IMG/VR virus record: IMGVR_UViG_3300018080_000100
Strand: one strand, 5' to 3'
Length of the DNA stretch: 64,000 bases
Origin: a virus
How positions within the stretch are numbered: position 1 is the first letter of the stretch; every line of letters begins with the position of its first letter. Under the pieces are notes generated by a model. The model did not search any database. It saw only the letters and a program-made list of their open reading frames with translations, and was not told the origin of the DNA. Made by a program: the position numbers and the translations under genes. Below, piece by piece: positions 11,079 through 49,995 of the stretch.

Positions 11079-11080
11079 CT

Positions 11081-11947: not shown

Positions 11948-11983
11948 CTTTGTACCTCGCAACTACAAACTAAAGTGCGACTT

Positions 11984-12725: not shown

Positions 12726-12765
12726 ATCGCAATGGCGAATTCGCTTGGAAACAGATCGTTCATGG

Positions 12766-14032: not shown

Positions 14033-14430
14033 TGGACTAACACCTTGGAGATGTCGAGCAGTGCGTGACAGACGCGCAGGGCGTACTGGTTGGTATTGAT
14101 CAGATCAGGCTCGAGGGCGTGGTCCTCTTCCAGCTCATCGTCGTCCTTCATGGTCTTGACGATCTCGTCCAGGTGCGCAATGCAGTCCTTGGCCGCACAG
14201 CTGCGGATGAACTCGCCATAGCGGGCAGTCAGCTCAGGTACGGTGGCGCCAGCGTCGCGCTCGGTGCGCAGCTTCGTGAGAAACTCCTCCAGCTCCTCGG
14301 CTGCTTCGCGCAACTCAACGGCCAGCTGGGACAACTGGTGCATGTATCGGACGCTACGTGACATGAAGTTCCTCCACGAGGTCTGCAACCTCTTCGCCAA
14401 CTGGATAACCGAACTCCTCGAACCATGCAA
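14029..14430 (-). CDS. hypothetical helical protein
   Basis: 133-aa ORF, 4-bp overlap with the downstream gene. Confidence 0.4.
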   Translation of the reverse strand: MHGSRSSVIQLAKRLQTSWRNFMSRSVRYMHQLSQLAVELREAAEELEEFLTKLRTERDAGATVPELTARYGEFIRSCAAKDCIAHLDEIVKTMKDDDELEEDHALEPDLINTNQYALRVCHALLDISKVLVQ

Positions 14431-15064
14431 GGTACTTTTCTTCGATATGCTGGATATCGAAGTACGGCAGCCGCTGGTGGTAGCCGCCGATACCGACGTG
14501 CTGCCGGTGGCGCTGTTTGCCGTACAGGAAGCCCTGTTCCGGCTCGTATTCAGTGTTCAGCTCAGGTAGAATCTCGAGCTTGATTGCTATGTCTTCCAGC
14601 TGCCGATAGTCGAAGCTGTGGTCTGGGAACAGGTGCCTGGCCAGCATATCCAGCGTACCCACCTTGTTGACCATCATGCTCTCGAATCGGAGCCCCTTGG
14701 TCGCGCACGCCGTCCATTCGAACGCAGGCTCGACAAGCAGCGCCTCCATACCGACGAATACGCCATCGCAGAGTCCACGGCGCTTGTACGACTCGACTTC
14801 CAAGAGCTGGGCAGCTACAGCGCTGCAGAACGCGTCTCGCAGGTCGCGGACGATGGTGATGACTTTGTCGGCCGGGCGCCAGTCCACTGAGATGTCGTGG
14901 GTCTTGATAACCTCGATGAACCCGGCCGGCGGCGGCTCATACGACTGAATATCGGTGGCATAGACGATGCCTGGGAACAGCTTCTCCGCCAGCATGCGCA
15001 CGGCGTTGAACGTCCACGTGGAGCCCGAACGGGCCATTGCCCCGACAACGATCCTGGTCATCAT
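14354..15064 (-). CDS. sulfotransferase (P-loop type)
   Basis: GAMARSGSTW (5'-PSB P-loop) and TIVRDLRD (3'-PB RDxRD-like). The palindromic motif abuts the start. Confidence 0.65.
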   Translation of the reverse strand: MMTRIVVGAMARSGSTWTFNAVRMLAEKLFPGIVYATDIQSYEPPPAGFIEVIKTHDISVDWRPADKVITIVRDLRDAFCSAVAAQLLEVESYKRRGLCDGVFVGMEALLVEPAFEWTACATKGLRFESMMVNKVGTLDMLARHLFPDHSFDYRQLEDIAIKLEILPELNTEYEPEQGFLYGKQRHRQHVGIGGYHQRLPYFDIQHIEEKYLAWFEEFGYPVGEEVADLVEELHVT

Positions 15065-15086
15065 TTTGTTCCTGTGATCAAAATCA
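15065..15086 (-). promoter_or_regulatory. conserved inverted-repeat motif abutting a sulfotransferase start codon
   Basis: ttttgttcctgtgatcaaaatc. Confidence 0.4.
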
Positions 15087-15737
15087 GCGTTCCATCATCT
15101 TCACCCGGTGCTGCGGGCCAGCAAGCGCCATCAGGTCGTCCTCCTGCTCTGGCGTAAGCCATTGCGGGATACCGACTAACGACGCGGCCACCAAGCTCTG
15201 CGCAGCGTCCTCGACGATCTGGCAGCGGAAGAACGCCTGTCGCATAGTCGTACCCAAGGCACAGAAGCCATGGTTGACCATGAAGATCGACTCGGCTTCC
15301 TTGGCAGCCTCCGCCATCCGGTCGGCTAGTTCCTGTGTGGTAGGCGTGACATACGGCACCGTGGCACGCCGGCCCAGATCATTGACTACCTCAGCGAACA
15401 TCGCCCGTTGCGCCATATCTAGGCCTGAGCTGATCACGCCACACAGCCAAGGCGAATGTACGTGGAACACGGCGTGGATGTCTGGACGCGCTCGATAGAT
15501 GGCCAGATGCATCTGGGTCTCAGACGTCGGCTTGTAGGTGCGCGTACGCGGCTTGCCGCTGTCGATCGCCACGGGGCACAGCTGACGTATGTGCAACTCA
15601 CCCAGGGACAACCCGCTCGGCGACAGCCAGGCGGTGTCGCCGTCGCGCGCACTGATGTTGCCGCCAGAGCCAACAACCAAGTGTGCGTCGTAGAGCTTCT
15701 TGCCGTATCGGACTAGGGCGTGTGTGATAGCACTCAT
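15084..15737 (-). CDS. class II aldolase/adducin family (L-fuculose-/rhamnulose-1-phosphate aldolase or ribulose-5-P 4-epimerase-like)
   Basis: VVGSGGNISAR motif and H..H.H metal ligands. Start at MSAITHAL with a TAATG overlap to the upstream gene. Confidence 0.6.
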   Translation of the reverse strand: MSAITHALVRYGKKLYDAHLVVGSGGNISARDGDTAWLSPSGLSLGELHIRQLCPVAIDSGKPRTRTYKPTSETQMHLAIYRARPDIHAVFHVHSPWLCGVISSGLDMAQRAMFAEVVNDLGRRATVPYVTPTTQELADRMAEAAKEAESIFMVNHGFCALGTTMRQAFFRCQIVEDAAQSLVAASLVGIPQWLTPEQEDDLMALAGPQHRVKMMER

Positions 15738-16649: not shown

Positions 16650-19271
16650 CTATTGAAGCATCTGTAGCATTTGTTGACGGCGCGGCTCGCCTGGCCCGAC
16701 AAACGGTATGGTAAAGCCCTTCTCCGCCTTGATGCCTTCGATGGCCTTCTGGCGCATCTCTGGCGGGAGCTGCGCGATGAGCTGCGCCATCTGCTGGTCT
16801 GGGATCTTCTTGTAAGCCCACGCCTTGATCAGGTCTTTGACGTCAGCTTGGGAGTCCAAGATGCCTTTCTTGCCGCCCTTATCGCCGTACTTGTTCACCC
16901 AGCCGAACTGTTGTCGTAGATCGGCCATGGCCTGTTCGGGCGTCTGCGGCTCAGGCGGTCCCTGGCGGACGCCAGCCGGTACGTTGGCCTCGTTACGCAT
17001 TCCAGGAGGCCCTTGTAACGCCGGATCGGCCGCTGGTATCTCATTAGGCGGCTCTTCGGGCGGAAGCTCCGGAACTGGCGCTGCGGCTGCTGGCGGCGGC
17101 ACAGGGCCAGCAGGCTCTACGCCAGGAATCTCAGGCGGCCCTTCGGGCATTGTTGGCCCAGCCGGGGGCTGTTCAGCGCCCTCAGGCGCTGCCTGGTCGC
17201 CTCCACCGCCGAACTGGTTCATCACCCAGTCGCCACCTCCGAAGGCCCATCCGAGCCCACCGAGACCGAGCGCGCCGCCGAGCATGGTCATCATGCCGTC
17301 GCCGCCCATCAGGCCGTTGATGAGCCCCATGACAGCGCCACCGACGCCGACGATGAGACCGAGCTTCTCGTGCCAATCCGAGTTCTTCCACCAATCGATG
17401 GCCTGCTCGATGTAGCCCGGATCCTGCTTTAGCTGCTCAGGATCAGCGCCCATCTGGGCCGCGTCCTGCTCGGCTTTGTACTCGAACGCCTTGCTGAGGT
17501 CGTCGGCATCGTATTCACCGTCAGCCCACTGGCGGGCGATCTTGCCCATGGCCTGCTCAACAGGGATGCCCTGCTCATAGGCCAGCTTGTGCGCCTTCTC
17601 GATACTGCGGTTCGCAATGACCTGCTGCACGGCACGTGGCACCTGCTCCTGTGGCACCTGCCCGGAGTTGATGGCGGCCGTCAGCTGCTCGATCTGTTGC
17701 GGCTGCATCGGATTGCTCATGGCGCGCTGGAAGGCGTCGTCGCCTACAGGGCCCTCGTAGATCATCTGGGCGACCGCTGGGTCCAACGGCTGCTGTGGTG
17801 CTGCAGGAGGCTGTCCAGGGGCCTCAGCGGCCGGAGGCGGCTGTTGTGGTGCTGCGGCCGGAGGCGGCTGTTGTGGTGCTGCGCCCGGTTCTGGTTGCGC
17901 TGGTGGCGCTCCAGTAGCCGCTCCTGGAGCCTGAACGGTCCCAGAGGCCGATGGTGTTGCAGGAGCGCCCTGAGCGCCCTGAGGGCCGCCCATCTCTGGG
18001 ATCGGTCCTGTGGGCGGCAGCTCTGTAGCAGCGCTTGGCTGCGTAGCGGCAGGCGGGTTGGCCTGTGCTGCTGCCGCGCCAGCCTGTTGGCCAGCGGCAA
18101 ACGATTCGGTCGGTGCGCTGGGCGCTGCTGGCGTTAGCGGCGCTGGTTTCGGTCTGTTGCCCTGCATGAGGCTTTCCATGTGCTTCACGAGTATGGATTG
18201 CTGTGTTGGATATGCTTCGACCGCTGGTGGCCCTTGTTCGCCGAAAGACTGTTCCCACTTCTCGTACTCGGCTTGCGCTGCGTCGAAGAAGCCTTTCTTC
18301 TCTTCATCGGTGAGTCTTGCGAGCACCTGTTGCTCGGGACTGCCCTCTGGCCACATGCCAGCGCCGACCGAACCCATCTCGCCGAAGATCAGGCCCAGGA
18401 AGCCCTTGCCTTTGCCGACGACATACGGCAACGCCGTCGACGCCGTATCGAACATGATACGCCCGGTGTCGGTGAATTTGTCGCCGGGGCCCTGCTTAGC
18501 GGCTGAGCTTTCAGTGTCGTGCCACCAGTCGTCGAATCCGCGGCTGGTCCGTGGACTGAACAACTGGTGCATACCGCGCTCATACGCGTTCTGGTACGGC
18601 ACACGCGCCGAGCGCATTGCTTCCACGCCGTGATCAGTGATGCCTAGAGCATCAGTGCCGTAGGCACCGAGCTGTCCGATACCACCAATCACGTCGCCCC
18701 AGAAGCCGCCTGCGCCGCCCAGTGCGCCTTTCGTTGCAGCTACAACTGGCGCGATGAAGCCTGGGTTACGAATTTGACGCCCGCCGGGGGCGTTGAAACC
18801 CTGCTCAGCACTGATCTGGTCCTGTGTGGCCCAGCCTGGCCCTTCATCGATTCCAGGCGTATTTTGCCACTGCCATTCGTTCTTCCGGCTCGGTGTGCCT
18901 ACCTTGTGTCCCGGATCCAATCCCGGCTTGGTAGCCGGATCGATACCACGAGAGATGAGGTCGGCACGCATGCGGGCCTGCTCTGCTTCGATCGACGGAC
19001 GCGGCCCCGGTGCAGGGCCAGGACCGTCCCAGGCTAGCTCCGGCGGCTTGAATGCGGGCTGTTTCGCCCCACGTGCGTACATGGCCGCGCCCATACGGCC
19101 ACCGATCGGGCCGGCGAGCGGGAGAGCCTGCTTCTCGAGCGCCGCACCCTCAGTGAATAAAGATGCAGGGCTGCCTGCTGACCGCTGGCGTGGTTGGTCA
19201 GCAGACAGGCCCTGCGGAGCGGATTCGATGGTCAAGGCAAAGGCTGCCTTGATTAGCTGTTCTGTGTTCAT
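16650..19271 (-). CDS. large low-complexity P/A/Q-rich protein with Gly-rich membrane-like segment (putative internal virion/ejection protein)
   Basis: 873 aa. Long PAPQQPPPAA tracts and GGALGLGGLGWAFGGG glycine-zipper; no enzymatic motifs seen. Confidence 0.5.
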   Translation of the reverse strand: MNTEQLIKAAFALTIESAPQGLSADQPRQRSAGSPASLFTEGAALEKQALPLAGPIGGRMGAAMYARGAKQPAFKPPELAWDGPGPAPGPRPSIEAEQARMRADLISRGIDPATKPGLDPGHKVGTPSRKNEWQWQNTPGIDEGPGWATQDQISAEQGFNAPGGRQIRNPGFIAPVVAATKGALGGAGGFWGDVIGGIGQLGAYGTDALGITDHGVEAMRSARVPYQNAYERGMHQLFSPRTSRGFDDWWHDTESSAAKQGPGDKFTDTGRIMFDTASTALPYVVGKGKGFLGLIFGEMGSVGAGMWPEGSPEQQVLARLTDEEKKGFFDAAQAEYEKWEQSFGEQGPPAVEAYPTQQSILVKHMESLMQGNRPKPAPLTPAAPSAPTESFAAGQQAGAAAAQANPPAATQPSAATELPPTGPIPEMGGPQGAQGAPATPSASGTVQAPGAATGAPPAQPEPGAAPQQPPPAAAPQQPPPAAEAPGQPPAAPQQPLDPAVAQMIYEGPVGDDAFQRAMSNPMQPQQIEQLTAAINSGQVPQEQVPRAVQQVIANRSIEKAHKLAYEQGIPVEQAMGKIARQWADGEYDADDLSKAFEYKAEQDAAQMGADPEQLKQDPGYIEQAIDWWKNSDWHEKLGLIVGVGGAVMGLINGLMGGDGMMTMLGGALGLGGLGWAFGGGDWVMNQFGGGGDQAAPEGAEQPPAGPTMPEGPPEIPGVEPAGPVPPPAAAAPVPELPPEEPPNEIPAADPALQGPPGMRNEANVPAGVRQGPPEPQTPEQAMADLRQQFGWVNKYGDKGGKKGILDSQADVKDLIKAWAYKKIPDQQMAQLIAQLPPEMRQKAIEGIKAEKGFTIPFVGPGEPRRQQMLQMLQ

Positions 19272-19279
19272 GGCTATCC

Positions 19280-20182
19280 CTAAAGCTGAATGCCGGGCCA
19301 GCGTGCAATCTTGTCTCGGCTCGGGCTGACCTTCTTGTCGCTGAGCCCGTCAGTCGCTTCGGTGGTCGGACATGCCGGCTTGAACCCGCCAGCGGCCGGA
19401 CCGTATGTGCTGTTCTGCAACACCTGCGTCACGCTGGGCACGAGCATGGCCAGCTTGTCGTAGGCATCCTTTTCCTGCGCAGCCTCCTGCTTCTTCTTTT
19501 CCTTCTCTGCCCGCTGGTTCTCGTACTGCTGTTCGTAGTTGTTGCCGGGCAGCCACTTGTCGAGCAACATCGAGGTCGGTAGGCCGGCAGCCAATCCGCC
19601 GATGCCCATACCAGCTAGACTGCCCAGCGGATGTCCAGTCATTCCACCGGCTGCGCTACCAACACCCATACCAGCAAGCAGGGGAACCACTGAGCCCCAG
19701 GTGTGCAGACTGTTACGCTCTGTGTCTGGCATTTCACCGCTTTCCCAGCTAGGCGCCTTCTGCCGCCCGCCAAGCGCATAACCGGCAACGCCGCCTGCGC
19801 CCATACCGCCGAGCGCGCCGAGGCCAGCACCAGCGCCGATGTCTTCACCCATGAGATGTGCGATAAGCGCACCTAGGCCAGCGCCACCGGCGCCGCCACC
19901 GAGCATACCAAGACCGGTCTTAGCGCCACGCCGTGCACCTCTCGCATAGCCCTCAGTGCGGTTGCCGGACGGCGCAAACATCGCACCAAGTCCGCCGCCG
20001 ATGAGGCCGGTGTCCGAAATGCTCTGCTTCTCCAGTGCGAGCTTCTCCAGCCGCTCAGCACACGCCTCGGCCATCTTACGACGACCCCTGCGCTTCTTGA
20101 GCGCTTTGGCGACGATCTTGTCCTGCTCGTCGTCCTCTTCGATCGGCTTACGGACGGCCATTATGTCTTGTGGGTCAGGCAT
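19280..20182 (-). CDS. glycine-zipper membrane protein
   Basis: Repeated GxxxG/GAGLGALGGMGAGG segments; basic N-terminus. Confidence 0.5.
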   Translation of the reverse strand: MPDPQDIMAVRKPIEEDDEQDKIVAKALKKRRGRRKMAEACAERLEKLALEKQSISDTGLIGGGLGAMFAPSGNRTEGYARGARRGAKTGLGMLGGGAGGAGLGALIAHLMGEDIGAGAGLGALGGMGAGGVAGYALGGRQKAPSWESGEMPDTERNSLHTWGSVVPLLAGMGVGSAAGGMTGHPLGSLAGMGIGGLAAGLPTSMLLDKWLPGNNYEQQYENQRAEKEKKKQEAAQEKDAYDKLAMLVPSVTQVLQNSTYGPAAGGFKPACPTTEATDGLSDKKVSPSRDKIARWPGIQL

Positions 20183-20195
20183 CGTTCTCTCCTTG

Positions 20196-21647
20196 TTATG
20201 CGTATGACGACAAGCGGCCGGCCTGGTCGAGCTGGTCTCGTAGGCCGCTGTGCAGGATATCCGCGCTCTGGTCGCTCATGGCGGTGTTGAACGCGTTGGG
20301 GTCATGCCCGGTCTCGAACTGGTCGCGCCGGGCCAGGTAGTTCTGCTGCGGCAAGCTGACGTCAGCACCGCCACGCAAGCCAGCACGCGCCTTGGAAGCG
20401 ATCATGTCGCCCCGGCGCTCTAGGCCGCTGTAGTAATCCATCATCTTCTGGGCGTTGGCCTTCTGGCCCTCGCCGATCACGCTGCCACGGCTGGACAGTC
20501 CACCAACGTCGCCCTGTCGGAGCGAATCGTAGTATTCCATCTGTTCGCGGAATCGGCTGTCGGCCCACGGTGACTTCTGTTCCGGTACCGCACCACCGCC
20601 ACCGGTGGCCTCGAAGCGCGCTGTGGCGTCAGGGAGATCCATGCTATCGGGCGGAGGGCTTTCCATCGTGCCCGACGCCATCGCATCACCAGGCGTACCA
20701 GGCTCAGCAGGCGCGTTCATGCCATCCATCCTGGCAATCTCAGCCTCGAAGCCTGGGCCACGAGGATTGGGCGGCTCGTTCATGCCATCCATCCTGGCGA
20801 TCTCTGCCTCGAAGCCTGGGCCACGAGGGTTCGGTCCAGGCCCGCTCTCTGGCATGCGCGCGTTCATGTCGGCCACGGCCGCCTCAAAACCAGGGCCACG
20901 AGGGTTGCCAGGCTCAGGCGGCGCATTCATGCCGTCCATACGTGCAATCTCTGCTTCGAAGCCTGGACCACGTGGATTGGGCACAGGACCACTCTCAGGC
21001 ATCCTGGCGTTCATGTCGGCCACAGCAGCATCGAAACCAGGGCCACGAGGGCTGTCCGGCTGTTGCCAGTTGATCTCCGGAAGCGGAGGCCCAGGGTACT
21101 TGTCCTTGGCGAGGTCAGGCGCACCAGGCTTAGGCGCATTGCCTGTAGGCTCACCGACAGTATCCCAGTTGACGTCCGGGAGCGGACCGCCAGGCGGCTG
21201 GTCGTAGGCTGCATCAACAGGCCCGCCCATGGCCGGGCTGATCGGCTGCTGCGGTGCTTGCGGAGTTGCAGGCTGCTGTGCTGCTACAGGCTTAGGCGCA
21301 GGACGCCGGCCGCTCGAATAGAACGAGTAATCGGCTGTTCTGTTGGGGTTGGCCGGGCCGCTGAGTGTTGCGCCCGGTGCGCCACCAGCGCCGACACCGC
21401 TGGCAGCAAGCGCCTTGGGTATGTCCTGAAAGCCCTTGTTGGCCATCATGGGCAGCTTAGCGGGCGGACGGGTAGGCGGCTTCAGCCCACCGACGCCACC
21501 TGCCATTGGCTTGGGGCCTACTGGATTGAGCGCCTTGAGACCGGCGCCTCCGACGCCACCAGCGCCACCAAGAGTCTTAGGTGGCTCAATAGGGGCAGCT
21601 TCCTTGAACAGGCCCACGCCGGCCTGCAGAAGTTCTTGAGAGTTCAT
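20196..21647 (-). CDS. tandem-repeat protein (PRGPGFEAxxAxMxxxMPESGP units)
   Basis: Five to six ~24-aa repeats (NPRGPGFEAEIARMDGMNAPPEPG), visible as DNA tandem repeats around 20650-21060. Confidence 0.55.
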   Translation of the reverse strand: MNSQELLQAGVGLFKEAAPIEPPKTLGGAGGVGGAGLKALNPVGPKPMAGGVGGLKPPTRPPAKLPMMANKGFQDIPKALAASGVGAGGAPGATLSGPANPNRTADYSFYSSGRRPAPKPVAAQQPATPQAPQQPISPAMGGPVDAAYDQPPGGPLPDVNWDTVGEPTGNAPKPGAPDLAKDKYPGPPLPEINWQQPDSPRGPGFDAAVADMNARMPESGPVPNPRGPGFEAEIARMDGMNAPPEPGNPRGPGFEAAVADMNARMPESGPGPNPRGPGFEAEIARMDGMNEPPNPRGPGFEAEIARMDGMNAPAEPGTPGDAMASGTMESPPPDSMDLPDATARFEATGGGGAVPEQKSPWADSRFREQMEYYDSLRQGDVGGLSSRGSVIGEGQKANAQKMMDYYSGLERRGDMIASKARAGLRGGADVSLPQQNYLARRDQFETGHDPNAFNTAMSDQSADILHSGLRDQLDQAGRLSSYA

Positions 21648-21692
21648 TGTCCGCTCCTTGGACTTGTGTTCCGCTCCTCTAATTTACCAGCT

Positions 21693-22331
21693 TTACCCCT
21701 CTGGGACATAGAGACCTTCGAACAACTTCCAGTCGATCTGGTCGGTGATCTGGCGGATGTGTTCGGGCTTCAGTAGCTCCAAATACTGCTTTTCCGTGTA
21801 GTATTGGCGCTTGAACTTGTACTGAGGCATCCCTCCAGGGGTACTGCCTGGCCGTACAATCGTCTCCGGCAGCGCGTCCCAGCGCTTCTTCGGCGGGCCC
21901 AGCAGCTCGGTCATCGGCGCGTAGAGCGCGTCCAGCGACTCCAGCACGTCCTCGTACCGAACGATGGCCTTGTCGTACTTCGTCTTGAACCAGGCCCGGT
22001 AGAAGTTGTTGTACTGCCCGATGCGGTAGCCCAACTTCGCTGGCCCGTACGAAAACGGAATCTTGGTGTCGGGGATCTTGGTGCCCTGATGGCCTGCCTG
22101 CACTGCCCATGCATGCCAACTGACGATCCACGCATAGGGATCCTTCAAATTGATCAGCAGAACAGTATTGAGCGGCCAATCTCTCGAGTCCTGTACTGTG
22201 CGGTGCTTGGTAGTACGCCCGCGCTTACCGCGGCGACCGACCAGGTGATTGTATCCCCAACCATCTTCCACCATCTTGCCACACATGGTCGTGCCAGAGC
22301 GTGGCAATCCTCGCTGTTGTACCTTACGCAT
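21693..22331 (-). CDS. sulfotransferase-like P-loop protein
   Basis: GLPRSGTTM P-loop near the N-terminus and later aromatic/basic motifs. Embedded in the virion-like module. Confidence 0.45.
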   Translation of the reverse strand: MRKVQQRGLPRSGTTMCGKMVEDGWGYNHLVGRRGKRGRTTKHRTVQDSRDWPLNTVLLINLKDPYAWIVSWHAWAVQAGHQGTKIPDTKIPFSYGPAKLGYRIGQYNNFYRAWFKTKYDKAIVRYEDVLESLDALYAPMTELLGPPKKRWDALPETIVRPGSTPGGMPQYKFKRQYYTEKQYLELLKPEHIRQITDQIDWKLFEGLYVPEG

Positions 22332-23036: not shown

Positions 23037-24200
23037 TTATAGCCACGGCACAGGATCGCCGATGTCTGGGAACTCCGACAGGTCTACGGGCGACAAAGAA
23101 TAGCCGACCGGCAACGTTGCAGCGATCAGATCGTATTGACCATTGACTGCGCACGAGCCGCTCACCTTCTCTCCATAGTTGGCAACAGCCCAGTGCTGCG
23201 ATACCCACACCAACTCGTTGTTGACGATGATGAACTGCGGATCCCCCGAATCGCCGGTATAGATCTGTTTGTCTGGCGGATAGAAAGCCGCACGCTGCGC
23301 ATCGCCCGAAACGAACTCTGGATCTCGTGTACGGAAGCTTTGCCACTTGGAGGTGCCGTAGCACCCGGTTATGTCCATCACCAATGCGTCTTCGCGGTTG
23401 TTGCGACTGTTCTGGCAGAACGTCGGTATGCCGTAGGCTTTAACATCAGGGTCTTCGAAGCTGATGTAGCTCTTGCCAGTGAACTTCACGGCGTCTTCAG
23501 GCCGCAGGAACTTGCACGGCGTGATCGTGCCCGGTAAGTCTAAGTTCAGCTCGCACACTGTTATGTCAAGCGTATGTCCGCCATCCTCCGGCGGCCTGAA
23601 GAGCGATGTCTTCGACTGAATTGTGCGCTTCTCTACGGCGTTGGCCATCGTTATGAAGTGCAACTCAGCGCCGACTGGTGGATCCCAATGCGTTGCGGCT
23701 ATCACGTGCTTGGGCGTGATCAACGTACATGCCTGTTGGCGGTTATTCGTGTTGTACGGCGAGATGCACGTCATATCGATGTCCGCTGCCCAGCAGTTGA
23801 CATTGCGCACGTACGTGTCGGTCTCCTCGACACGGGTCGTGTACATTGGGAGCGCCACATCGGGATCAAGCCCACGGATCCGATCGTCGACCATGGCCGA
23901 GGCGTGCTCAAACAACGTGATAGGCGCCTGCGACGAGGACGATGACGACTCCACGACAACAGGCTCAGGGCTGACCGTACGAGGTGTCTCCTCGCCAAGG
24001 TGCCAGGGGTCGTTCTCTGTGGAGGCTCTGTCTGGCGCAGGGTAGCCGTCAGGGATGCCAGAGGCGCGCGGCTGTGGCCGCCACACAGGGTAGACGTGGA
24101 TCAGGCTGTCCTGGGGCACAACGGTAGCGTTAGGGCGCCGATACGTGGTTCGGATACCCTCCCGCTCTAGGAATCGTCGTGCGTCGCCTGTGATTGCCAT
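23037..24200 (-). CDS. chymotrypsin-fold (S1) serine protease-like protein, paralog 1
   Basis: ITPKHVIAATHW (His region) and GDSGDP (GDSGxP catalytic Ser motif). 50% similar to the neighbouring gene. Confidence 0.5.
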   Translation of the reverse strand: MAITGDARRFLEREGIRTTYRRPNATVVPQDSLIHVYPVWRPQPRASGIPDGYPAPDRASTENDPWHLGEETPRTVSPEPVVVESSSSSSQAPITLFEHASAMVDDRIRGLDPDVALPMYTTRVEETDTYVRNVNCWAADIDMTCISPYNTNNRQQACTLITPKHVIAATHWDPPVGAELHFITMANAVEKRTIQSKTSLFRPPEDGGHTLDITVCELNLDLPGTITPCKFLRPEDAVKFTGKSYISFEDPDVKAYGIPTFCQNSRNNREDALVMDITGCYGTSKWQSFRTRDPEFVSGDAQRAAFYPPDKQIYTGDSGDPQFIIVNNELVWVSQHWAVANYGEKVSGSCAVNGQYDLIAATLPVGYSLSPVDLSEFPDIGDPVPWL

Positions 24201-25367
24201 TTATGCCTCCGATGCGCGCCATGCGCACATTGGGCCGACGTCTGGAAACCCGGATATGTCAATCGACCCCAATTCGTAGCCTACCGGTAACAGCGCATTG
24301 ATGTCTGCTGCCATTCCGCTTAGAAACGGTCGGCCGGTGCCGCCGTCCCGCTGGGTGAGGATGCTCGTATGCATGTTTATGAGCGCCAACTCGCCGTTGA
24401 CGATAGCACACGTCACGTCGCCCGAGTCGCCGGAGTTGATCTTGTTCGGATAGAACGCGTCGCGCGTTGGATCGTAGGAACGGTAATACCACGCTGTACG
24501 GTACTTGACCTCCGGATACAGCCCGCCAATATCCATCACTTGGCCATCTTCGCGAGCGCTGCGGCTGTTCCCTACGAACACTGGCATACCAACGGCTTTG
24601 TTCTCCTCGGTGATGGGCGCAAACAGATAGCCAGGTCCAGCAAACTTCACATCGGCCTCCGCCGGCAATAGCTTGGCCGGCGTGATCGTCCCTGGGAGAT
24701 CAGAGCTCAACTCGCCGATACGCATATCAGCCGTCTGTGGCCCAGTGCTCGGGTCGATGTACGTCACGTCGGTCCAAGACATGAGCGTACGCTTCTCGAC
24801 CACGTTGCCCATAGTGACAAAGTGGAGCACGCTCCCGATAGGAGGATACCAGCCAAGGTGCGTCACCGATATCACATGCTTGGGCGTGATTAGCGTAGCG
24901 CTCTTCATGTGGTTATCGTCGTTCCACGGAACGAGGCAGGTCATATCGACATCTGCGGCCCAGAAGCTGGTATTCCGTACGTACGTCTCGGTCGCACCAT
25001 CTCGGACGGTGAACATGGGCACGGCGACATTCGGATCCAGTCCTCGGATACGGTCGTCGATCTGCGCTGTGGCATGCTCTAACAACGTAGTGGTCTGCAC
25101 CGACGACGAAGATGAACTCTCCTCAGGCACCACGGGCACGACAGTGCGCGGCGTGACTGGGCCAAGATGCCAGGGGTCGTTCTGCGTGGAAGCTCTGTCG
25201 GGGTTAGGCGCGCCGTTGAGGATGCCAGAGGCACGTGGGAACGGCCGATCCACAGGATAGTCGTGGATGGCGCTGTCACCAGGCACAACGGTCCCGATCG
25301 GTCGCCTGTACGTTGACCGCATCTTCGCGCGCTCCAAGAAGCGCCTAGCGTCCATGGTGACAGTCAT
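24201..25367 (-). CDS. chymotrypsin-fold (S1) serine protease-like protein, paralog 2
   Basis: ITPKHVISVTH and NSGDSGD motifs; collinear with 23037-24200. Confidence 0.5.
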   Translation of the reverse strand: MTVTMDARRFLERAKMRSTYRRPIGTVVPGDSAIHDYPVDRPFPRASGILNGAPNPDRASTQNDPWHLGPVTPRTVVPVVPEESSSSSSVQTTTLLEHATAQIDDRIRGLDPNVAVPMFTVRDGATETYVRNTSFWAADVDMTCLVPWNDDNHMKSATLITPKHVISVTHLGWYPPIGSVLHFVTMGNVVEKRTLMSWTDVTYIDPSTGPQTADMRIGELSSDLPGTITPAKLLPAEADVKFAGPGYLFAPITEENKAVGMPVFVGNSRSAREDGQVMDIGGLYPEVKYRTAWYYRSYDPTRDAFYPNKINSGDSGDVTCAIVNGELALINMHTSILTQRDGGTGRPFLSGMAADINALLPVGYELGSIDISGFPDVGPMCAWRASEA

Positions 25368-35279: not shown

Positions 35280-36683
35280 TTATGCCGTAATCTCCTCGGG
35301 GTCGTGCATCTTGTCTGGTGCAGTCTCCGCGGGGAGAGGCATCTGCTCTGAGATGTCAGCCCGGAACGTCAACGCCTCTGTTCCCGGCTTCTTCTCCGGC
35401 TTGACCTGTTCGTGGAAACGCCGCATGGCGCTCGTAGTCAGGCCGTAGCGCCGCTTGTTGTCCTTCTCGGTGTTCCTGGTGATCTTACGCAGCCGATTGG
35501 CCAACACTGCGGCATTCGCCTCGTATGTGTCAGCCTGCGCTTCGGCGTTGTTCATCAGACACTCGATGAAGCGTTCGATCGTTGCCGCCGGATAGTGGTA
35601 CTGTGCACGCACCAGAGCGGCGCGAACAGGTGCCACACTCACATGCTTTTCGTGAGTGAACCGGTTGAACACAGAACAGGTCTCGCCGAAAGCCTCAGCG
35701 TGATCCTCAAAGAAGCACAACTGTGCCGGCTTGGACGGAGTTTCGCTCGGATGACGCATGCCGCGCATCGTCCAAGTGATGATGGGCGAAGAGCCATTCA
35801 AGTCGATCTTGCAGAAGCCTGCAGCGTTCTCAACCGTACGCTGCCGCCCAAGGTCCATCATCCGCACTGCCGCTTCGCTGAGCCCGACGAAAACGAGCGT
35901 CCTGAACGCAACGTCCTCTTCGATGCCGGCACGCAGCCGCGTCTGCCCATCGCCCAAGAACGGCTCCGGGAAGACGACGAACGAAATACCTTGTGGGGTA
36001 TCCGCCCAATTGTTGCTCGCCATGTCACTGGCGAACTGGCGCATGGTCGAATGCCCGATGGGCCGGTTGCGGCTGTTGTAGTGCTCCAGCCAATCGCGCC
36101 CGATAGTGGGAGCGACAGTCATCGGCGCTACCATCATGCCGAGACCGCACGGGACCAGCCGGGGCAGTCCCAGCTGCTTACCGAACGACTGCATCTGACG
36201 CTCTTCCGCCACCGTGATCTCGGGATCGAAATCCAGATCCAGCTCGATACGCTTGCCGCGCATCGGTGCCGGTAGCGTTGCCGGCTTGAACGCCTTGGTC
36301 GCCACAACCGATTCGGCAGACTTCAGACCCTTCAGGATGTCCATGACATCTTCTAGGTCCGTACGCACGCCGACAGGCTGCATCGTGTACAACATGCGGC
36401 AGTTCTCGCTCTTCTGTGGCTTAATGAAGAGCTCAATGCCGCTACCATCTTCGGCGAGACCCTGAACAAGCACCGGCTTGCCCTTGGCTGCGGGTGCCGG
36501 CGCCACGGGCGTCAACAACCACTTGCCGTCGATAGACTTCGCACGCAGGGCATTTTCGAGTCTTGCACGCGCTTGGCGGTGCACTCGCACGGATCCCACG
36601 CCATCCGTTAGGGTGAGTGAAAGTGACATACTTTCCTCCTCCTCTATTGGACAATACCCGGGCATAACGACTAGCCCGTACAT
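35280..36683 (-). CDS. hypothetical protein (467 aa)
   Basis: Long ORF; motif at 36705-36726 upstream. Confidence 0.5.
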   Translation of the reverse strand: MYGLVVMPGYCPIEEEESMSLSLTLTDGVGSVRVHRQARARLENALRAKSIDGKWLLTPVAPAPAAKGKPVLVQGLAEDGSGIELFIKPQKSENCRMLYTMQPVGVRTDLEDVMDILKGLKSAESVVATKAFKPATLPAPMRGKRIELDLDFDPEITVAEERQMQSFGKQLGLPRLVPCGLGMMVAPMTVAPTIGRDWLEHYNSRNRPIGHSTMRQFASDMASNNWADTPQGISFVVFPEPFLGDGQTRLRAGIEEDVAFRTLVFVGLSEAAVRMMDLGRQRTVENAAGFCKIDLNGSSPIITWTMRGMRHPSETPSKPAQLCFFEDHAEAFGETCSVFNRFTHEKHVSVAPVRAALVRAQYHYPAATIERFIECLMNNAEAQADTYEANAAVLANRLRKITRNTEKDNKRRYGLTTSAMRRFHEQVKPEKKPGTEALTFRADISEQMPLPAETAPDKMHDPEEITA

Positions 36684-36738: not shown

Positions 36739-36778
36739 AAAGAAAAGAGGCAGGGCCCTGGGCTTGCGCCCAGAGCCC
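36739..36778 (-). terminator. rho-independent terminator
   Basis: gggccctgggc-ttg-cgcccagagccc imperfect long hairpin + UUUUCUUUAGCCC tail. Confidence 0.5.
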
Positions 36779-36799
36779 TGCGGGATCGGAGCCTCTGTG

Positions 36800-37297
36800 T
36801 CATGCGCCACGCATGGCCTTGGCTTGTCGTTCAAGCTCCCAGTCCATCGCGTAGCCTTGATCGCCTTCCTCGTACTCCCGGTACGCAGCGTCCCATGCGC
36901 GGCGTTCGGCGCTGTCGCTGTCGAGGAAGCCGGCGTGGACCTTGGCCCACTCGTATGCGTGTACGTCGTCGGGTTCGACGATCCACCAGTGTTCGGTGTC
37001 GTCGTGGTGCGGTGTCATAGTCCAGTGCTGCCCATCGACGTTGATCCTGAGGCCGACGCATCGGCTCTCAACCAACCTATCGCCGTCGAGATCCAAACGC
37101 GCGTCGAACAGTGACGGACTGCAGCCAATGGTGTTGTCGAGCAGCTCGATCTGCACGTGCTCTCCCGGCTCGATCGAAGGGCTCGACGGATGGCCTGCTT
37201 GCTGTATGACAACAACCAGGCGGTTAATCCACACGGATCTGTCGCTCAAGCCGAAAGCCCGAGCAAGGTCCGCCATCTTGGTGAACGAGAAGTACAT
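36800..37297 (-). CDS. hypothetical protein
   Basis: 165-aa ORF. Confidence 0.45.
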   Translation of the reverse strand: MYFSFTKMADLARAFGLSDRSVWINRLVVVIQQAGHPSSPSIEPGEHVQIELLDNTIGCSPSLFDARLDLDGDRLVESRCVGLRINVDGQHWTMTPHHDDTEHWWIVEPDDVHAYEWAKVHAGFLDSDSAERRAWDAAYREYEEGDQGYAMDWELERQAKAMRGA

Positions 37298-37464: not shown

Positions 37465-38241
37465 TCACGTGTAGGCCACGTGTTTCTCCTTTCTGTGTCT
37501 ATGCGCCAACAGCACGCAGGTGCCGATGATCAGCATGGTGATCGTGGATGGTTCAGGCGTAATCGCAAAGCCTCCTGTGCCATGATCGAAAGAGCCTACG
37601 AACGACGCCTCGACTGTGTCCACGTCGATGGTCCACAGCGTACCGTTGTTCCAGGCATACAGCCCGTCGGGACCGTAATCGAACGCCCAGAACGTGTGAC
37701 CGGGTAGCTGGCCAAGCGGGGTCGTTGAGCCAGACAGCATATCGACCTCGACCAGCCACTTGGATGCCTGATCCCAAATGAACGCCCGGCTGTCTGGCGC
37801 AATCGCAAACGCCTCGATACTGACATACGGGAAGAGCGTGTGCATGACCCAGTAGCCGCCGTGCTCGGTATCGATCATGACCAGTTCGTTGTCATAATTG
37901 ATGCCAAACAGGTTATCCATTGGATCGAACGCTATGCTCCTGCATGTCCGGGGCGTCGTGCCGATGTACGTGCCGAGGCCAGACACGGGATCGATAGTCC
38001 ACAGCTTCTCGTGCATGCTGGTGGCGTACAGCGTGCCGTCTGAGCTGCTATCGAGTGCGCGCACAGCCGCTATGCCGCTAGGGCCGCGTTGTGACTGTAC
38101 GCCGGTTGAAAAGTCGGTGAGGTACAGAACAGAGTTGGCTGTACTGTCAACGACGTAGCCGACAGTCTCCGCGCTAGCAAAGCACGGAGTCAACAGAATC
38201 AGCAGCAATGCGTACCGCATCGTCGAACTCCTCCTCTTCAT
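37465..38241 (-). CDS. secreted beta-propeller-like protein with PEP-CTERM-like C-terminal sorting signal
   Basis: Signal peptide MRYALLLILLTPCFASA. C-terminus ITPEPSTITMLIIGTCVLLAHRHRKEK (PEP + TM + basic tail). Confidence 0.5.
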   Translation of the reverse strand: MKRRSSTMRYALLLILLTPCFASAETVGYVVDSTANSVLYLTDFSTGVQSQRGPSGIAAVRALDSSSDGTLYATSMHEKLWTIDPVSGLGTYIGTTPRTCRSIAFDPMDNLFGINYDNELVMIDTEHGGYWVMHTLFPYVSIEAFAIAPDSRAFIWDQASKWLVEVDMLSGSTTPLGQLPGHTFWAFDYGPDGLYAWNNGTLWTIDVDTVEASFVGSFDHGTGGFAITPEPSTITMLIIGTCVLLAHRHRKEKHVAYT

Positions 38242-38560
38242 AGGGGAGCATTAGCGTCTGCCAGTAATCGTCTTGTGCCATTTCTGCCATCCAGCCTTCA
38301 ACGCCAAGACGGTGCAGCCGCGAGTAATGCTTCCTGATGTAAGGAACACGGGGGTCTTCCTCCCTGTCCAAACGCTCCAGCTCCGCTATCGCTTCGTCCG
38401 TCTCAAGCAGCAGTAGCCGCTTGAGCCAGGACAACGTGTACTTCGCGTCGCGCACAAGCTGCGCATTCAACGCGCTACTGGCCGCCGACGACGTCCGTGT
38501 GGACGCTGTCCGCCAGTAGTCAGTGACGATCTGCAACACTCTGTCGCGGGTATACGACAT
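38174..38560 (-). CDS. hypothetical protein
   Basis: 128-aa ORF; overlaps the downstream gene start, boundaries uncertain. Confidence 0.35.
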   Translation of the reverse strand: MSYTRDRVLQIVTDYWRTASTRTSSAASSALNAQLVRDAKYTLSWLKRLLLLETDEAIAELERLDREEDPRVPYIRKHYSRLHRLGVEGWMAEMAQDDYWQTLMLPYEEEEFDDAVRIAADSVDSVLC

Positions 38561-38578: not shown

Positions 38579-39019
38579 TTAGCGTCGCCTGCCGAAGAAA
38601 TAGATGCCGTGGTGAGTTGCGGCAATGGGCTCGTCGGTCGCTGACATGCCGCCTCTGCGCACAGTCTCGCCCGCCAGCGGGTTGAACTTGAGGATCGGTG
38701 GCGCATGTGCGCGCCATACATCGATGCTCCCGGGCAGTTTGACTTCCCGCCCTTCTGATAAGAGGTTCGCCCACTCGCTGTGATAGGCGGGGATGATATA
38801 CCACGTACCGTCCGGCGCGACCATGTACTTGCGGTACTTGGTCGTCTCGTCGTTCTCGGCGACCGTGGTCTCAACAACAGCCCAGCGCTCATAGGTGGGC
38901 AGCTCCGAGACCAGTGTCATACCGTCACTGCGCTCTCCTACGCCGCCGACGCTGTAAATCAGCACGAAAGCGATGGCCACGATGGCCACGATGGCCACAA
39001 TGAAATCCTGTGTACGCAT
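38579..39019 (-). CDS. membrane-anchored hypothetical protein
   Basis: N-terminal TM FIVAIVAIVAIAFVLIY, encoded by a gccacgatg x3 DNA repeat. Confidence 0.4.
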   Translation of the reverse strand: MRTQDFIVAIVAIVAIAFVLIYSVGGVGERSDGMTLVSELPTYERWAVVETTVAENDETTKYRKYMVAPDGTWYIIPAYHSEWANLLSEGREVKLPGSIDVWRAHAPPILKFNPLAGETVRRGGMSATDEPIAATHHGIYFFGRRR

Positions 39020-39042: not shown

Positions 39043-39077
39043 TGAAAAGCGGAGGGGCGGCGACAAGCCGCCCCTCC
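39043..39077 (-). terminator. strong hairpin + U-run (terminator or attenuator)
   Basis: ggaggggcggc-gacaa-gccgcccctcc 11-bp stem followed by GCUUUUCAUCC on the minus transcript. Confidence 0.45.
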
Positions 39078-39333
39078 AGGGCCAGTACCTCCCTCATCGG
39101 GAAGTTCAATGTGTACGAAAAACGCGGCCGAGAGCTCAATGAGCACCCGGCCGCGATGGTCCGTTTCCGCATACTGCAGGCGAGATTTGAATAAAGACTC
39201 CTGCAGGCCAGTCGTGACCGCAAGGCTGTCGAGGCAAGGATCTTCGCCTCGGTGGGTACGGGCGCAAGGCTCATGTCAACCGTGCGCTAACGGACAACCT
39301 TTACACCACCGTCCTCCACGACACTCACCAACC

Positions 39334-46884: not shown

Positions 46885-47934
46885 CTAGCGTTGGAGTTCC
46901 GTCCATCCTGCCGCAAATTGCTTTCTGCGGTTCAACAGTCCGATGGACGCTTGCTTCTTCATCTTGACGATAAGTGCTCGGTCCTGCAAGGTGGACACGA
47001 GCGTATCCGCGAATTCCCTATAACCGGATATCACCTCCGGCACGCCAAGCCAGTTCTCCTTGGTCTTGGCTGGTACGAGCACGGAGTTCTTCCAGGATTT
47101 CAGGAATTCGTTTTGTGGGCGCATGTCCCACGAGAGCACGGGCGCACCCATGCACAACGAGTTCAGGCCGATAAGCCCGAAGCTCTCAAATCTGGACGCC
47201 CAAACGGTCAGGTCAGCCCGTGCGAACAGCATAAGCCTGTGCAAGATATTCGGATGGAGGACAAGCACGACTCTGTCACCGAACTGCTTACGTAGGTCTT
47301 TCACTATACGCTTGGAAGACAATGACCATTTGCGTCCACAGGCAATCATCACGTTCGCGTGCGGTACCTCCGCCAATGTCCTGTGCATCATGTCGAATAT
47401 CGCCTGATCGCTTCTTTGCGGTTGCGTATCATAGAGCGGGAAGTAGACACACAGGTTGTTGTGCGGTTCGTCGGTGTTCCTGCGAGAGATTGGGACAGGC
47501 ACGTCCCAGGGCATCATGATCGGTGTAGTGCTGTCTAGCTGCCAATGCCGCTGGAGCGCATGACCGACACAACGATACGGGATGATGATCTTATCGAATG
47601 CGAGCACCGTGGCTGCGTCATTGGGTGTGAGTCGCTCCCACTCGATAAGCAGCGCGGTTTCAACGTCCAGGTGCTTGATGCGCCGCAGTTCGCGCTTCCT
47701 GGGCACGTGTGTCCAGATGATACGGCTGCAACGCTGTGCCCACTTGAGCAAGCGCTGTTGCCGCGCGCTGACTACTGCAGAATCCCAGACGCGGGCTACT
47801 TCACGACGTACGACGCCCTTACCGTAGATGGTAGACGGCAGACCTTGATCCCTGGCCCTCTCGGCCAAATGGACCGCAGCATGCGCAACTTCGTGCTGCT
47901 GGTATCGGGTTATGATCCCGAGCCTGTCTGCCAT
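46885..47934 (-). CDS. GT-B fold glycosyltransferase (GT4-like)
   Basis: FESFGLIGLNSLCMGAPVL corresponds to the GT4 E-x7-E / EGFG..EAMA.G.PV motif region. Confidence 0.55.
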   Translation of the reverse strand: MADRLGIITRYQQHEVAHAAVHLAERARDQGLPSTIYGKGVVRREVARVWDSAVVSARQQRLLKWAQRCSRIIWTHVPRKRELRRIKHLDVETALLIEWERLTPNDAATVLAFDKIIIPYRCVGHALQRHWQLDSTTPIMMPWDVPVPISRRNTDEPHNNLCVYFPLYDTQPQRSDQAIFDMMHRTLAEVPHANVMIACGRKWSLSSKRIVKDLRKQFGDRVVLVLHPNILHRLMLFARADLTVWASRFESFGLIGLNSLCMGAPVLSWDMRPQNEFLKSWKNSVLVPAKTKENWLGVPEVISGYREFADTLVSTLQDRALIVKMKKQASIGLLNRRKQFAAGWTELQR

Positions 47935-47979: not shown

Positions 47980-49995
47980 TTACATCATGGGCATGCCACC
48001 CATGGGCTGACCGCCCATCGGCGGTGGGGCCATGCTTCCTTGCTGGCCCGCCATTGCAGCCTCCTGGCCCATCTGCCTGCCACGAGCTTCGGACTGCGAG
48101 TCCATCTGCTCCAGCAGCGACTTGACCAGGCTGTGGATCGTCGGATTACGCTGCTTGAGCTGTCGCAGCGCAGATTGCCGCTGGCCGCCAGGCATAGCGT
48201 AAATCTGCTGAGCAATGGTCTGTGCAATGGATTCCAGTTCTGGCGGGGTGAGCCCCTGCTCGTTGCCCATAGGCAGCTGCGCCATGACCGCCTGGACCGG
48301 ATCCATCGGCATCGCTGCCTGATCCGGTGACGGTGCCTCGCCACCCATAGGTGCGGCACCACCGGCTGCTCCGGGCTGGACCGGCGGCACCACGCCACCA
48401 GCACCTGGCCCAGGCATAGCGCCCATGGCCGCAGGATCGCCCCCAGCGGCTCCTGGGCCGCCTGCGCCCATTGCCAGTTGATCGCCCAGTCCGCTCGCTT
48501 CGAGCTCCTCCTGGGCCTTCTGGGACTCCTCAGCGACGAATTTCTGCTCCTCCAGCATGCGCTTCTGCTCGTCCTCGAATACCAGGCCCACGCCTCTGCG
48601 AAGGCCGGTAGTCTGGGAGACCTGGCCACCCATCATCAGCTGCAGGACAGCCAACTGACGGTTCAGGTCGTCTGCGTGGCTCGGGCGCGCTAGCCGGGCG
48701 GTCACCTCGTCCCAGCTGAGCGCCACCGAGATCTTGTTGCAGATCCACTGGAGGTAGTTGTTCAGCATGTAGGTCAGGTGGCTCCAGTGACTCTCCATGA
48801 GCCGCAGGGCCGCGGGCGCAGCCTGTACAGTGAGATCGCCCTTGTAGAACTGCACAGGGATACCTACCGAAGACAGCAGCGTGTCGAGCGCCTGGTCCAT
48901 GAGCTGGTAGGGTGCCAACTGGCTGGCCTCACCACCGAGCGCCTGGTAGCGCACCGGGAACGGCAGCGTGAACCACGTGGTCGGGTCTTGCCGCCGCTGC
49001 CGCAGCATGGAATTGACCTGCCCAGTGAAACCGCCGAGATCGGCAGTGAACAGCGGGTCTGTCATCTCACCGCCGCCTGCTCCGCCGCCCGGCCGAGGCT
49101 CGGGGGTCAGCACGCGGAACGGGATGATATAGTCGAGGCCGATTGCCTCGTTGTATCGGTGCAGTACCTGGAGATACCAGGCCTGCCGGAAGTTGGTCAG
49201 CACGCGGCTGATGCCCCAGCCTTTGTTCAGTACACCAGCAAGGGTATCCTCCTTGCCATGGTAGATCACGTCCTTGTTGAACTCGATGTGCGTGTTGTTC
49301 TTGACAGCCTGCACAACCTCCCACGGAGCGCGCTCCAAATGGAAGAGGGTACCTCTGGTGATGTACTGCTTGTAATGCTGCGGGATGCGCCAGATGTGTC
49401 CGACCTCGTCGGTATACGGATCCCAGGCGAGTTCCATCTCGTGCGGGCTCCAGCGCTTGATGATCAGATCGTCTTCCTCGTGGGAGCGGCGGTCGATGTG
49501 CGTCCACTTGCCGTGGTAGTTGCAGAATGGGCAATGCGCACGGAACTCTGAGCCCTGCCACGTGTAGCTGAACTTCTCGTTGCCGTGGATCTGGCGCAGG
49601 GGCGCCTCGAACCCACAGCCCGGGCACGAGAGGTTGCGCCGGAACGGGATCACGACCGATCCGAAGAAGTTGCCGTAGGTGCAGTAGTCGAGCGCGGCCT
49701 GCCGCAGCTCTGTATGGATTCCCAACGTGTTGTTCAGGAAGTCGAGATACTTCTCCTTCCCGTCACGGTCAGTGCCGTCGATTTCGACCTCAGTGATGAA
49801 GTACGAGATCACCCGGTCTACTGCAGACCGGTAGACACCGTTTGCCAACATGATGTATTCGCACCACCGCATAGCGTTCTGCAGTGAGCTGGGCATCGCT
49901 GTCGAGGCATAGTCACAGAATGGGTCCGGGAATGGCTCGACGTTTTGCGAACCGAGATTGGCCCCACCCGTGAAGTTGGGAATCAGATACGACAT
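47980..49995 (-). CDS. putative portal (head-tail connector) protein, T7 gp8-like, with zinc-ribbon insertion
   Basis: Segment LMDQALDTLLSSVGIPVQFY and the M/A/G/Q-rich C-terminal tail parallel T7 gp8. CPGCG...CPFCN insert. Confidence 0.45.
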   Translation of the reverse strand: MSYLIPNFTGGANLGSQNVEPFPDPFCDYASTAMPSSLQNAMRWCEYIMLANGVYRSAVDRVISYFITEVEIDGTDRDGKEKYLDFLNNTLGIHTELRQAALDYCTYGNFFGSVVIPFRRNLSCPGCGFEAPLRQIHGNEKFSYTWQGSEFRAHCPFCNYHGKWTHIDRRSHEEDDLIIKRWSPHEMELAWDPYTDEVGHIWRIPQHYKQYITRGTLFHLERAPWEVVQAVKNNTHIEFNKDVIYHGKEDTLAGVLNKGWGISRVLTNFRQAWYLQVLHRYNEAIGLDYIIPFRVLTPEPRPGGGAGGGEMTDPLFTADLGGFTGQVNSMLRQRRQDPTTWFTLPFPVRYQALGGEASQLAPYQLMDQALDTLLSSVGIPVQFYKGDLTVQAAPAALRLMESHWSHLTYMLNNYLQWICNKISVALSWDEVTARLARPSHADDLNRQLAVLQLMMGGQVSQTTGLRRGVGLVFEDEQKRMLEEQKFVAEESQKAQEELEASGLGDQLAMGAGGPGAAGGDPAAMGAMPGPGAGGVVPPVQPGAAGGAAPMGGEAPSPDQAAMPMDPVQAVMAQLPMGNEQGLTPPELESIAQTIAQQIYAMPGGQRQSALRQLKQRNPTIHSLVKSLLEQMDSQSEARGRQMGQEAAMAGQQGSMAPPPMGGQPMGGMPMM

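Follow-up and report, generated by a model that had tools for sequence, protein, structure and literature searches.

PEP-CTERM domains have so far been found solely in bacteria that possess an outer membrane and encode a homolog of EpsH/exosortase, and Planctomycetes are among these bacteria (Haft 2006, PMC1569441). The DNA considered here is a stretch of 64,000 nucleotides, IMG/VR virus record IMGVR_UViG_3300018080_000100 (below, the window, meaning this whole stretch), and in particular one gene on its minus strand at positions 37465-38241, the focal gene, which encodes a predicted secreted protein with a C-terminal tail of this type. Together with 10 kb on each side of the window, about 84 kb of an element of about 226 kb was examined. 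As in the PEP-CTERM/exosortase system of cellular genomes (PMC1569441), the focal protein has a signal peptide, no internal transmembrane segment, and a Pro-Glu-Pro motif, a helix and a basic cluster at its C-terminus; its body has a high content of Ser, Thr and Gly and few basic residues, and it scores over the cut-off of TIGR02595. Unlike in that system, the gene is encoded by a tailed phage and present as a single copy, as compared to a cellular median of eight (PMC1569441), the tail is atypical, and the phage DNA examined holds no exosortase, no PrsK/R/T and no gene for exopolysaccharide (EPS) export. The PEP-CTERM proteins with DUF4394 (PF14339) or DUF6923 (PF21959) found in Planctomycetota, Nitrosospira and other diderms, for example MHC4499097.1, have the same length and architecture as the focal protein, but they are at most 44% identical to it, and those with a readable context are all chromosomal, with a GC content of 44-47% as compared to 59% in the phage.

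Phages are known to carry 'moron' or lysogenic-conversion genes for surface proteins that make use of host export, such as Bor and Lom of lambda and Imm and Sp of T4. The focal gene resembles these in being accessory, in forming part of a small unit of its own, in having a product that appears to be targeted to the envelope, and in that the virion would be assembled without it. The known morons differ in using lipoprotein or beta-barrel insertion routes, and none of them is known to take the exosortase route.

A PEP-CTERM domain has also been annotated on a virus-like mobile element, in HOG10 of the IME1 virus-like elements of Dehalococcoides (bioRxiv 10.64898/2026.09.15.751708). That element is however small and integrative, it is proposed to be a filamentous or budding virus, its host is not a diderm, the domain is mentioned in passing, and HOG10 has no sequence relation to the focal protein. 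It is the sole virus-related mention found in the literature, in which no description of PEP-CTERM cargo in a tailed phage was found either. What is unusual here is the carrier, a tailed phage with a PEP-CTERM cargo gene, while the domain and the propeller family were already known. We propose that the focal gene is probably an intact moron carried by an uncultured tailed phage of jumbo size (about 226 kb), derived from a diderm bacterium, and that it encodes a beta-propeller which is processed by exosortase for the surface of the infected cell.

An earlier note on this DNA had placed an open reading frame (ORF) at 37465-38241, and ORF calling on the window gives exactly this frame on the minus strand, 258 amino acids (aa) in its longest form. 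A Shine-Dalgarno motif precedes the second in-frame ATG at a distance of 7 nt, so the product is likely to be 251 aa, and this shorter form is identical to a database protein (P0001). The parts of the gene are as follows.

37465-38220, minus strand: likely true coding sequence of the focal gene, 251 aa plus stop, starting at M8
38228-38236, minus strand: Shine-Dalgarno motif GAGGAGGAG, 7 nt 5' of the second in-frame ATG (38220)
38170-38220, minus strand: signal peptide MRYALLLILLTPCFASA, predicted cut by signal peptidase I after ASA (hydropathy, A-x-A rule)
37561-38169, minus strand: body, predicted five-bladed beta-propeller with DUF4394/DUF6923-type repeats (AlphaFold2, Foldseek, composition)
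37468-37560, minus strand: PEP-CTERM sorting domain, consisting of TPEP, the 15-residue helix STITMLIIGTCVLLA, HRHRKEK and HVAYT (TIGR02595, family alignment, hidden Markov model (HMM) of the tail)

The N-terminus, MRYALLLILLTPCFASA followed by ETVG, combines a basic n-region and a hydrophobic core with an A-x-A site, ASA|E, and it aligns with the signal peptides of all homologs. This is consistent with the cleavable signal peptide that had been claimed in the earlier note. A lipoprotein signal was rejected, since LTPC is not a lipobox and A-S-A|E suits signal peptidase I. The hydrophobic segments of the protein are confined to the two termini, with no internal transmembrane segment, both by hydropathy and in the AlphaFold2 model. 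The mature protein would be about 200 aa, and its body is rich in Ser, Thr and Gly and poor in Lys and Arg relative to other phage proteins, which is the bias described for PEP-CTERM proteins by Haft 2006 (PMC1569441).

At the C-terminus the sequence ITPEPSTITMLIIGTCVLLAHRHRKEK is followed by HVAYT and the stop codon, and the end of the translated protein reads ...FAITPEPSTITMLIIGTCVLLAHRHRKEKHVAYT*. The helix STITMLIIGTCVLLA has a Kyte-Doolittle hydropathy of 2.1-2.6, and the basic cluster HRHRKEK ends 5 residues before the stop. The arrangement of PEP motif, transmembrane helix and basic tail that the earlier note had recognised is thus there as TPEP, STITMLIIGTCVLLA and HRHRKEK, and it is homologous to the tails of the protein family. 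In the family alignment the first P and the E of the motif show no variation and the second P reaches a conservation of at least 90%, and the focal TPEP stands in these columns. Nearly all of the full-length relatives retrieved end in textbook tails, for example IPEPATLLLLGLGAVMLRRKR, and the canonical [IV]PEP...LLLLGLG...RRKR tails of the 250-290 aa relatives align column for column with the focal tail. The TIGR02595 search, which had been suggested as a check on the domain, came out only just positive; the focal protein scores 17.1 bits as compared to the curated cut-off of 16, over positions 1-23 of the 24 in the profile, and 37 of the 57 family members match the same model independently. 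An HMM of the tail only, built from 44 homolog tails with the focal protein left out, singled out the focal ORF from the 965 that the window has in six frames (E = 4.7e-5, next best 0.18). A loose regular expression for the tail gives about 0.4 chance hits per shuffled window, and the motif alone is therefore weak; it is the homology that makes the PEP-CTERM assignment solid. The comparisons support that the focal tail is a PEP-CTERM domain, homologous to and co-linear with the canonical tails of its family. There was no second PEP-CTERM tail in the window, in its flanks or in the loci of 80 related phages, but for a phage the relevant genome is that of the host, so the single copy does not count against function.

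A HMMER search of 1.84 billion cluster representatives gave 1,080 relatives at E <= 0.001. Many of them are 250-290 aa long and align end to end with the focal protein at 35-44% identity, and no homolog exceeds 44%. Against proteins of this length with precomputed PF14339 or PF21959 assignments the phmmer E-values were 1e-41 to 1e-28, and a profile search scored 300 bits. DUF4394 (PF14339) gave 27.1 bits, which is under its gathering threshold of 29.6. Judged by homology and predicted fold, although short of the Pfam threshold, the focal protein is a divergent member of the DUF4394/DUF6923 propeller family. AlphaFold2, with an alignment of 57 sequences, gave a model with a pLDDT (predicted local distance difference test) of 93 and a pTM (predicted template modelling score) of 0.86. 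Its 20 strands can be assigned to five blades of four strands each, and residues 226-248 form a single helix at the C-terminus. A Foldseek search of the model against PDB and viral models returned beta-propellers only (Pizza designs, Kelch, PknD-NHL, YWTD), in agreement with the repetitive propeller-like body that the earlier note had described.

The fold matches in BFVD include propellers annotated as 'virion structural protein' in phiKZ-like phages, and one could imagine that the focal propeller is itself a virion component, for example a receptor-binding module. These matches are however of the generic propeller kind, with template modelling scores of 0.4-0.5, and the signal peptide and the C-terminal anchor would route the protein out of the cytoplasm, which is where virions of tailed phages assemble. 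Furthermore, every relative with a readable context is a chromosomal PEP-CTERM protein, and a place in the virion seems extremely unlikely.

Among these relatives, one (P0157) adjoins TonB-dependent receptors and a histidine kinase, another (P0153) GroES/GroEL and UroD, and a third (P0005) a type II secretion ATPase and MgtE, while NCBI annotates P0008, from a Planctomycetota bacterium, as a PEP-CTERM protein. When 185,579 species-representative genomes were scanned with two family-specific peptide patterns and a tight four-sequence alignment, the only full-length relative was in a metagenome-assembled genome of an uncultured Pirellulales (L011, CAZICK010000012); the genome scan with P0157 as sole query gave nothing. 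At positions 10001-14352 of the Pirellulales locus there are three consecutive PEP-CTERM genes, the family relative and two more, with near-identical tails IPEPCTLxLLGLGGLGLLRKRR, and they adjoin a membrane complex similar to hydrogenase-4/Nuo. Among viruses, no relative of the focal protein was found by tblastn in INPHARED, nor in IMG/VR with either the single protein or an alignment scan, and the PHROGs search with the focal protein and three homologs gave no family. The genomes of the cellular homologs were ruled out as host, the tetranucleotide similarity of the phage to their loci being about zero or negative.

The longest contig with the focal protein is 226,656 bp. Most of the candidate genes (72 of 86) are on one strand, 94% of the sequence is coding, and Shine-Dalgarno-like motifs precede 60% of the minus-strand ORFs as compared to a background of 16%. 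The gene set includes ThyX, a peptide deformylase, a RuvC-like resolvase, a cold-shock protein, DNA polymerase fragments and a thymidylate kinase, while tRNA and Rfam scans of the window gave nothing. This organisation looks viral, and the decisive evidence for a phage comes from one gene.

47980-49995, minus strand: portal protein, 671 aa, by homology to Arash gp204

The 671-aa ORF matches the portal protein gp204 of the Salmonella myovirus Arash with E = 5e-52 in tblastn and E = 9e-62 in pairwise BLASTP, co-linear over residues 1-499, and mass spectrometry of purified Arash virions has detected gp204 through 32 peptides (PMC10585845). The AlphaFold model of the 671-aa ORF has an overall pLDDT of 67, with large parts of the core near 90. 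The portal has 825 homologs; the 120 listed are 47-96% identical, many of them on contigs of 200-229 kb, and some are interrupted by inteins. Relatives were also found in 239 IMG/VR viral contigs, several of which come from the sample series of the window. Pfam recognises neither the 671-aa ORF nor Arash gp204 as a portal. The portal homology is decisive, and the window is therefore part of a jumbo-size tailed phage. That the element carrying the focal gene is a tailed phage can in this way be regarded as confirmed from its sequence.

Alternatively, the contig might not be a phage at all, or a chimeric assembly might have placed what is really a bacterial chromosomal or plasmid gene in it. Searches for a major capsid protein (HK97 fold) and a large terminase in the DNA examined were negative, both with Pfam and PHROGs on the ten largest and on all 82 ORFs, with PDB sequence searches of four large ORFs, and with tblastn of the 519-, 358-, 287- and 1350-aa ORFs. 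The exact element has no match in the databases searched, neither by megablast of 24 kb of the window against INPHARED nor by an exact 30-mer of the window in IMG/VR. Most of the window ORFs have no Pfam or PHROG match. Against this stand the fold and homology of the portal with its many viral relatives, the genome size of about 200-230 kb that is conserved among them, the GC content of the focal gene, which matches its neighbours, and the DNA examined, in which no cellular housekeeping genes were found. Moreover, the focal gene and 16.7 kb of flanking DNA are identical in independent assemblies from three sources (JGI, ENA, Logan), which excludes a chimeric assembly. That the gene is not a phage gene is very improbable. 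An origin in a eukaryotic giant virus, considered because of GT15, GT25, a papain-like protease and sulfotransferases, was rejected on the Shine-Dalgarno usage and the phage portal.

Directly 3' of the portal, at 46885-47934 on the minus strand, is a 349-aa ORF with a weak match to Glycos_transf_1, and this ORF is kept beside the portal in nearly all of the 80 related loci, at 22-60% identity. The pairing of the two genes looks ancient from this conservation. In a related phage of 227 kb (ENA ERZ26692762, L018), with 64% identity in the portal, positions 14361-15476 encode a tubulin (PF00091); this phage has ThyA in place of the ThyX of the window, and two glycosyltransferases adjoin its portal.

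The focal gene is the third ORF of a unit of four, bracketed by two strong, GC-rich hairpins of the intrinsic-terminator type.

39050-39078, minus strand: terminator-like hairpin, stem of 12 bp with 10 GC and a T-run, upstream edge of the four-ORF unit
38579-39019, minus strand: first ORF of the unit, 146 aa, N-terminal hydrophobic segment, no family match
38174-38560, minus strand: second ORF of the unit, 128 aa, overlapping the start of the focal gene, no family match
36800-37297, minus strand: fourth ORF of the unit, 165 aa, no family match
36750-36781, minus strand: terminator-like hairpin, stem of 14 bp with 11 GC and a T-run, closing the unit

The unit lies in a region that is specific to this phage lineage. 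In the closest long relative, with 80% identity in the portal, the synteny stops after an HD-domain gene, at about 40.2 kb in the window, and the next 9.5 kb of that relative lack homologs of all window genes beyond HD, the focal gene included. Neither a member of the propeller family nor a PEP-CTERM tail was found in 1.24 Mb of DNA from related phages, made up of 80 loci anchored on the portal. Homologs of the portal number in the hundreds, with identities of 47-96%, whereas the focal protein has none above 44%. The chromosomal relatives, the lineage-specific region and the terminator-bounded unit together suggest an accessory gene that was acquired by horizontal transfer and lies in a variable part of the phage genome. 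The composition of the gene, with a GC content of 0.574 and 0.726 at third codon positions, is close to the phage averages of 0.589 +/- 0.024 and 0.689 +/- 0.074. This match may reflect either a long residence in the phage or an unsampled donor host of similar GC content.

At 35280-36683 on the minus strand, 116 bp 3' of the four-ORF unit, is a gene for a 467-aa protein; it begins at 36683, 66 bp beyond the hairpin at 36750-36781. It matches phrog_5931, of unknown function, with E = 1.6e-21, and has weak tblastn matches in Vibrio phages, Moraxella phages and an uncultured phage of 485 kb.

A gene in such a hyperplastic region could also be a functionless passenger, acquired from the host and drifting towards loss. 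Its region is absent from the closest sampled relative, hundreds of related phages have no ortholog of it, and its tail has diverged. A passenger would not, however, be expected to have an intact ORF, a strong Shine-Dalgarno motif and a full-length fold of high confidence, and the fully phage-adjusted composition implies a long residence without decay. The sequence is also identical across independent samples. Since all of the independent copies are identical, there is no variation for a selection analysis. On balance we find the passenger explanation distinctly unlikely.

For processing of the tail the phage would depend on an exosortase, and in a hydropathy scan of the window and the 10 kb on each side every ORF had at most two hydrophobic segments, hence no exosortase candidate was seen in the DNA examined. 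Around the Pirellulales homolog there was likewise no exosortase within 20 kb; the polytopic membrane genes beside it were considered and rejected, being hydrogenase-4/Nuo subunits. The tail would be processed only by exosortase, and as none was seen, the phage should need an exosortase-positive host with two membranes. That the gene constrains the identity of the host, as the earlier note had argued, is reasonable, since PEP-CTERM is limited to diderms with EpsH (PMC1569441) and the named full-length relatives of the focal protein, two in number and about 40% identical to it, belong to Planctomycetota/Pirellulales. In the planctomycete Stieleria maiorica a PEP-CTERM gene is linked to EPS genes (PMC7293339). 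The host is plausibly a diderm that has an exosortase, and these sequence comparisons make Planctomycetota the leading candidate.

The following course of events is modelled on the established PEP-CTERM/EpsH scheme (PMC1569441). The propeller protein would be exported through the Sec system of the host during infection, and the signal peptide would be cut off after ASA. The C-terminal helix would then keep the protein temporarily in the inner membrane, its basic cluster on the cytoplasmic side, until the exosortase (EpsH/Xrt) of the host recognises TPEP at the periplasmic face and cleaves. The exosortase may thereby pass the propeller on to the outer envelope or the exopolysaccharide layer. 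Our best guess is that the propeller would act at the surface as a binding module and alter the surface of the infected cell, for example by masking receptors, excluding superinfection or changing aggregation. By analogy with the cellular system, it is plausible that the phage hijacks the exosortase of its host to display a protein on infected cells, as had been suggested from the first reading of the sequence.

Several results weigh against this proposal. PF07589 gives 17.3 bits, below its gathering score of 20.7, although this model recovers only 22% of the TIGR02595 instances (Haft 2006, PMC1569441). In the tail HMM of the family the phage tail scores 19 bits, the lowest in the family, as compared to 30-37 bits for the cellular copies. 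It has one Gly, no LLGLG core, a basic cluster interrupted by His, and five extra residues. Apart from the tail, the fold matches are generic, which makes any surface activity of the propeller speculation. The link to Planctomycetota is through the two named homologs only, and the loci of the cellular homologs have 44-47% GC as compared to 59% in the phage, so no sampled homolog is the donor. The scan for exosortase, moreover, covers about 84 kb of about 226 kb, which leaves room for one encoded by the phage itself.

The main alternative starts from the marked divergence of the tail, down to its score below the Pfam threshold, which could mean that it now functions as a C-terminal membrane anchor only. 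In that case the propeller would be tethered to the inner membrane, facing the periplasm, with no processing by exosortase, and could serve as a periplasmic factor for superinfection exclusion or for the timing of lysis. That it is the sole tail of its kind in the phage DNA examined fits this explanation, cellular genomes typically having multiple copies (median eight; Haft 2006, PMC1569441). A pure anchor would however be free to lose both the P-E-P motif and the overall layout, and both are kept; TIGR02595 is still over its curated cut-off, and some cellular members of the family, P0191 among them, have very similar tails, TPEPSS...ITML. An anchor without processing is therefore possible, although we hold it to be somewhat unlikely, and prefer the exosortase-processed surface propeller.

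The window also encodes an unusually large set of enzymes of glycan metabolism, with matches to glycosyltransferase (GT) families 1, 2, 15 and 25, at least four sulfotransferases, a cytidylyltransferase, a class II aldolase, a rhamnose mutarotase and a lyxose isomerase in the 64 kb. The matches to Aldolase_II, rhaM, Lyx_isomer, GT2 and Peptidase_C1 are at the level of the window and not placed on specific ORFs. Those that could be placed are the following.

9644-10429, minus strand: GT15
8562-9818, minus strand: cytidylyltransferase
7097-7750, minus strand: GT25
5267-5812 and 5812-6357, minus strand: two adjacent Sulfotransfer_4 genes
63141-63914, minus strand: Sulfotransfer_1/3

A more far-reaching explanation would be a programme of surface remodelling, in which the phage would supply the exosortase cargo, these glycan enzymes would build or modify a sulfated glycan or EPS, and the exosortase would attach or embed the protein in this coat on the infected cell. 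This is speculative; no finding connects the enzymes with the focal cassette, and phage glycosyltransferases can, as one preprint describes, modify DNA instead (bioRxiv 10.1101/2023.12.21.572611). We consider the coat unlikely.

Some further features of the phage DNA fall outside these subjects. At 23037-24200 and 24201-25367 on the minus strand are tandem paralogs of 387 and 388 aa, 52% identical, with no Pfam or PHROG match; by eye, their GDSGD and ...TH motifs look trypsin-like. The region 16650-22331, also on the minus strand, has a raised GC content of 0.63-0.64, and its AT skew is strongly negative. Its products, of 873, 300 and 483 aa, are low-complexity proteins rich in Gly, Pro and Ala and with no family match, the 483-aa protein containing NPRGPGFEAEIARMDGMN repeats. 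About 5-9 kb past the left edge of the window (L004, 15721-19773) there is a 1350-aa protein with a weak match to LigD_N only and no relative among deposited phages; it adjoins a 2H-SAK/InPase-domain protein and a thymidylate kinase.

The finding concerns one gene in one phage lineage, with a function that is inferred only. PEP-CTERM/exosortase sorting is widespread and poorly understood, and it has so far been treated as purely cellular and tied to EPS. A substrate carried by a phage in which no exosortase was seen suggests that viruses can feed cargo into this pathway, and were the coat a reality, this would be the first virus to exploit it. For the abundant and uncultured clade of phages of about 200-230 kb the gene provides a clue to the host, which is of interest as phage isolates of Planctomycetota are very scarce. 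The focal protein, being small and confidently folded, could also be a test substrate for exosortase processing, the chemistry of which is still unresolved. Exosortase sorting would in this way join the host export routes that are exploited by accessory genes of phages.

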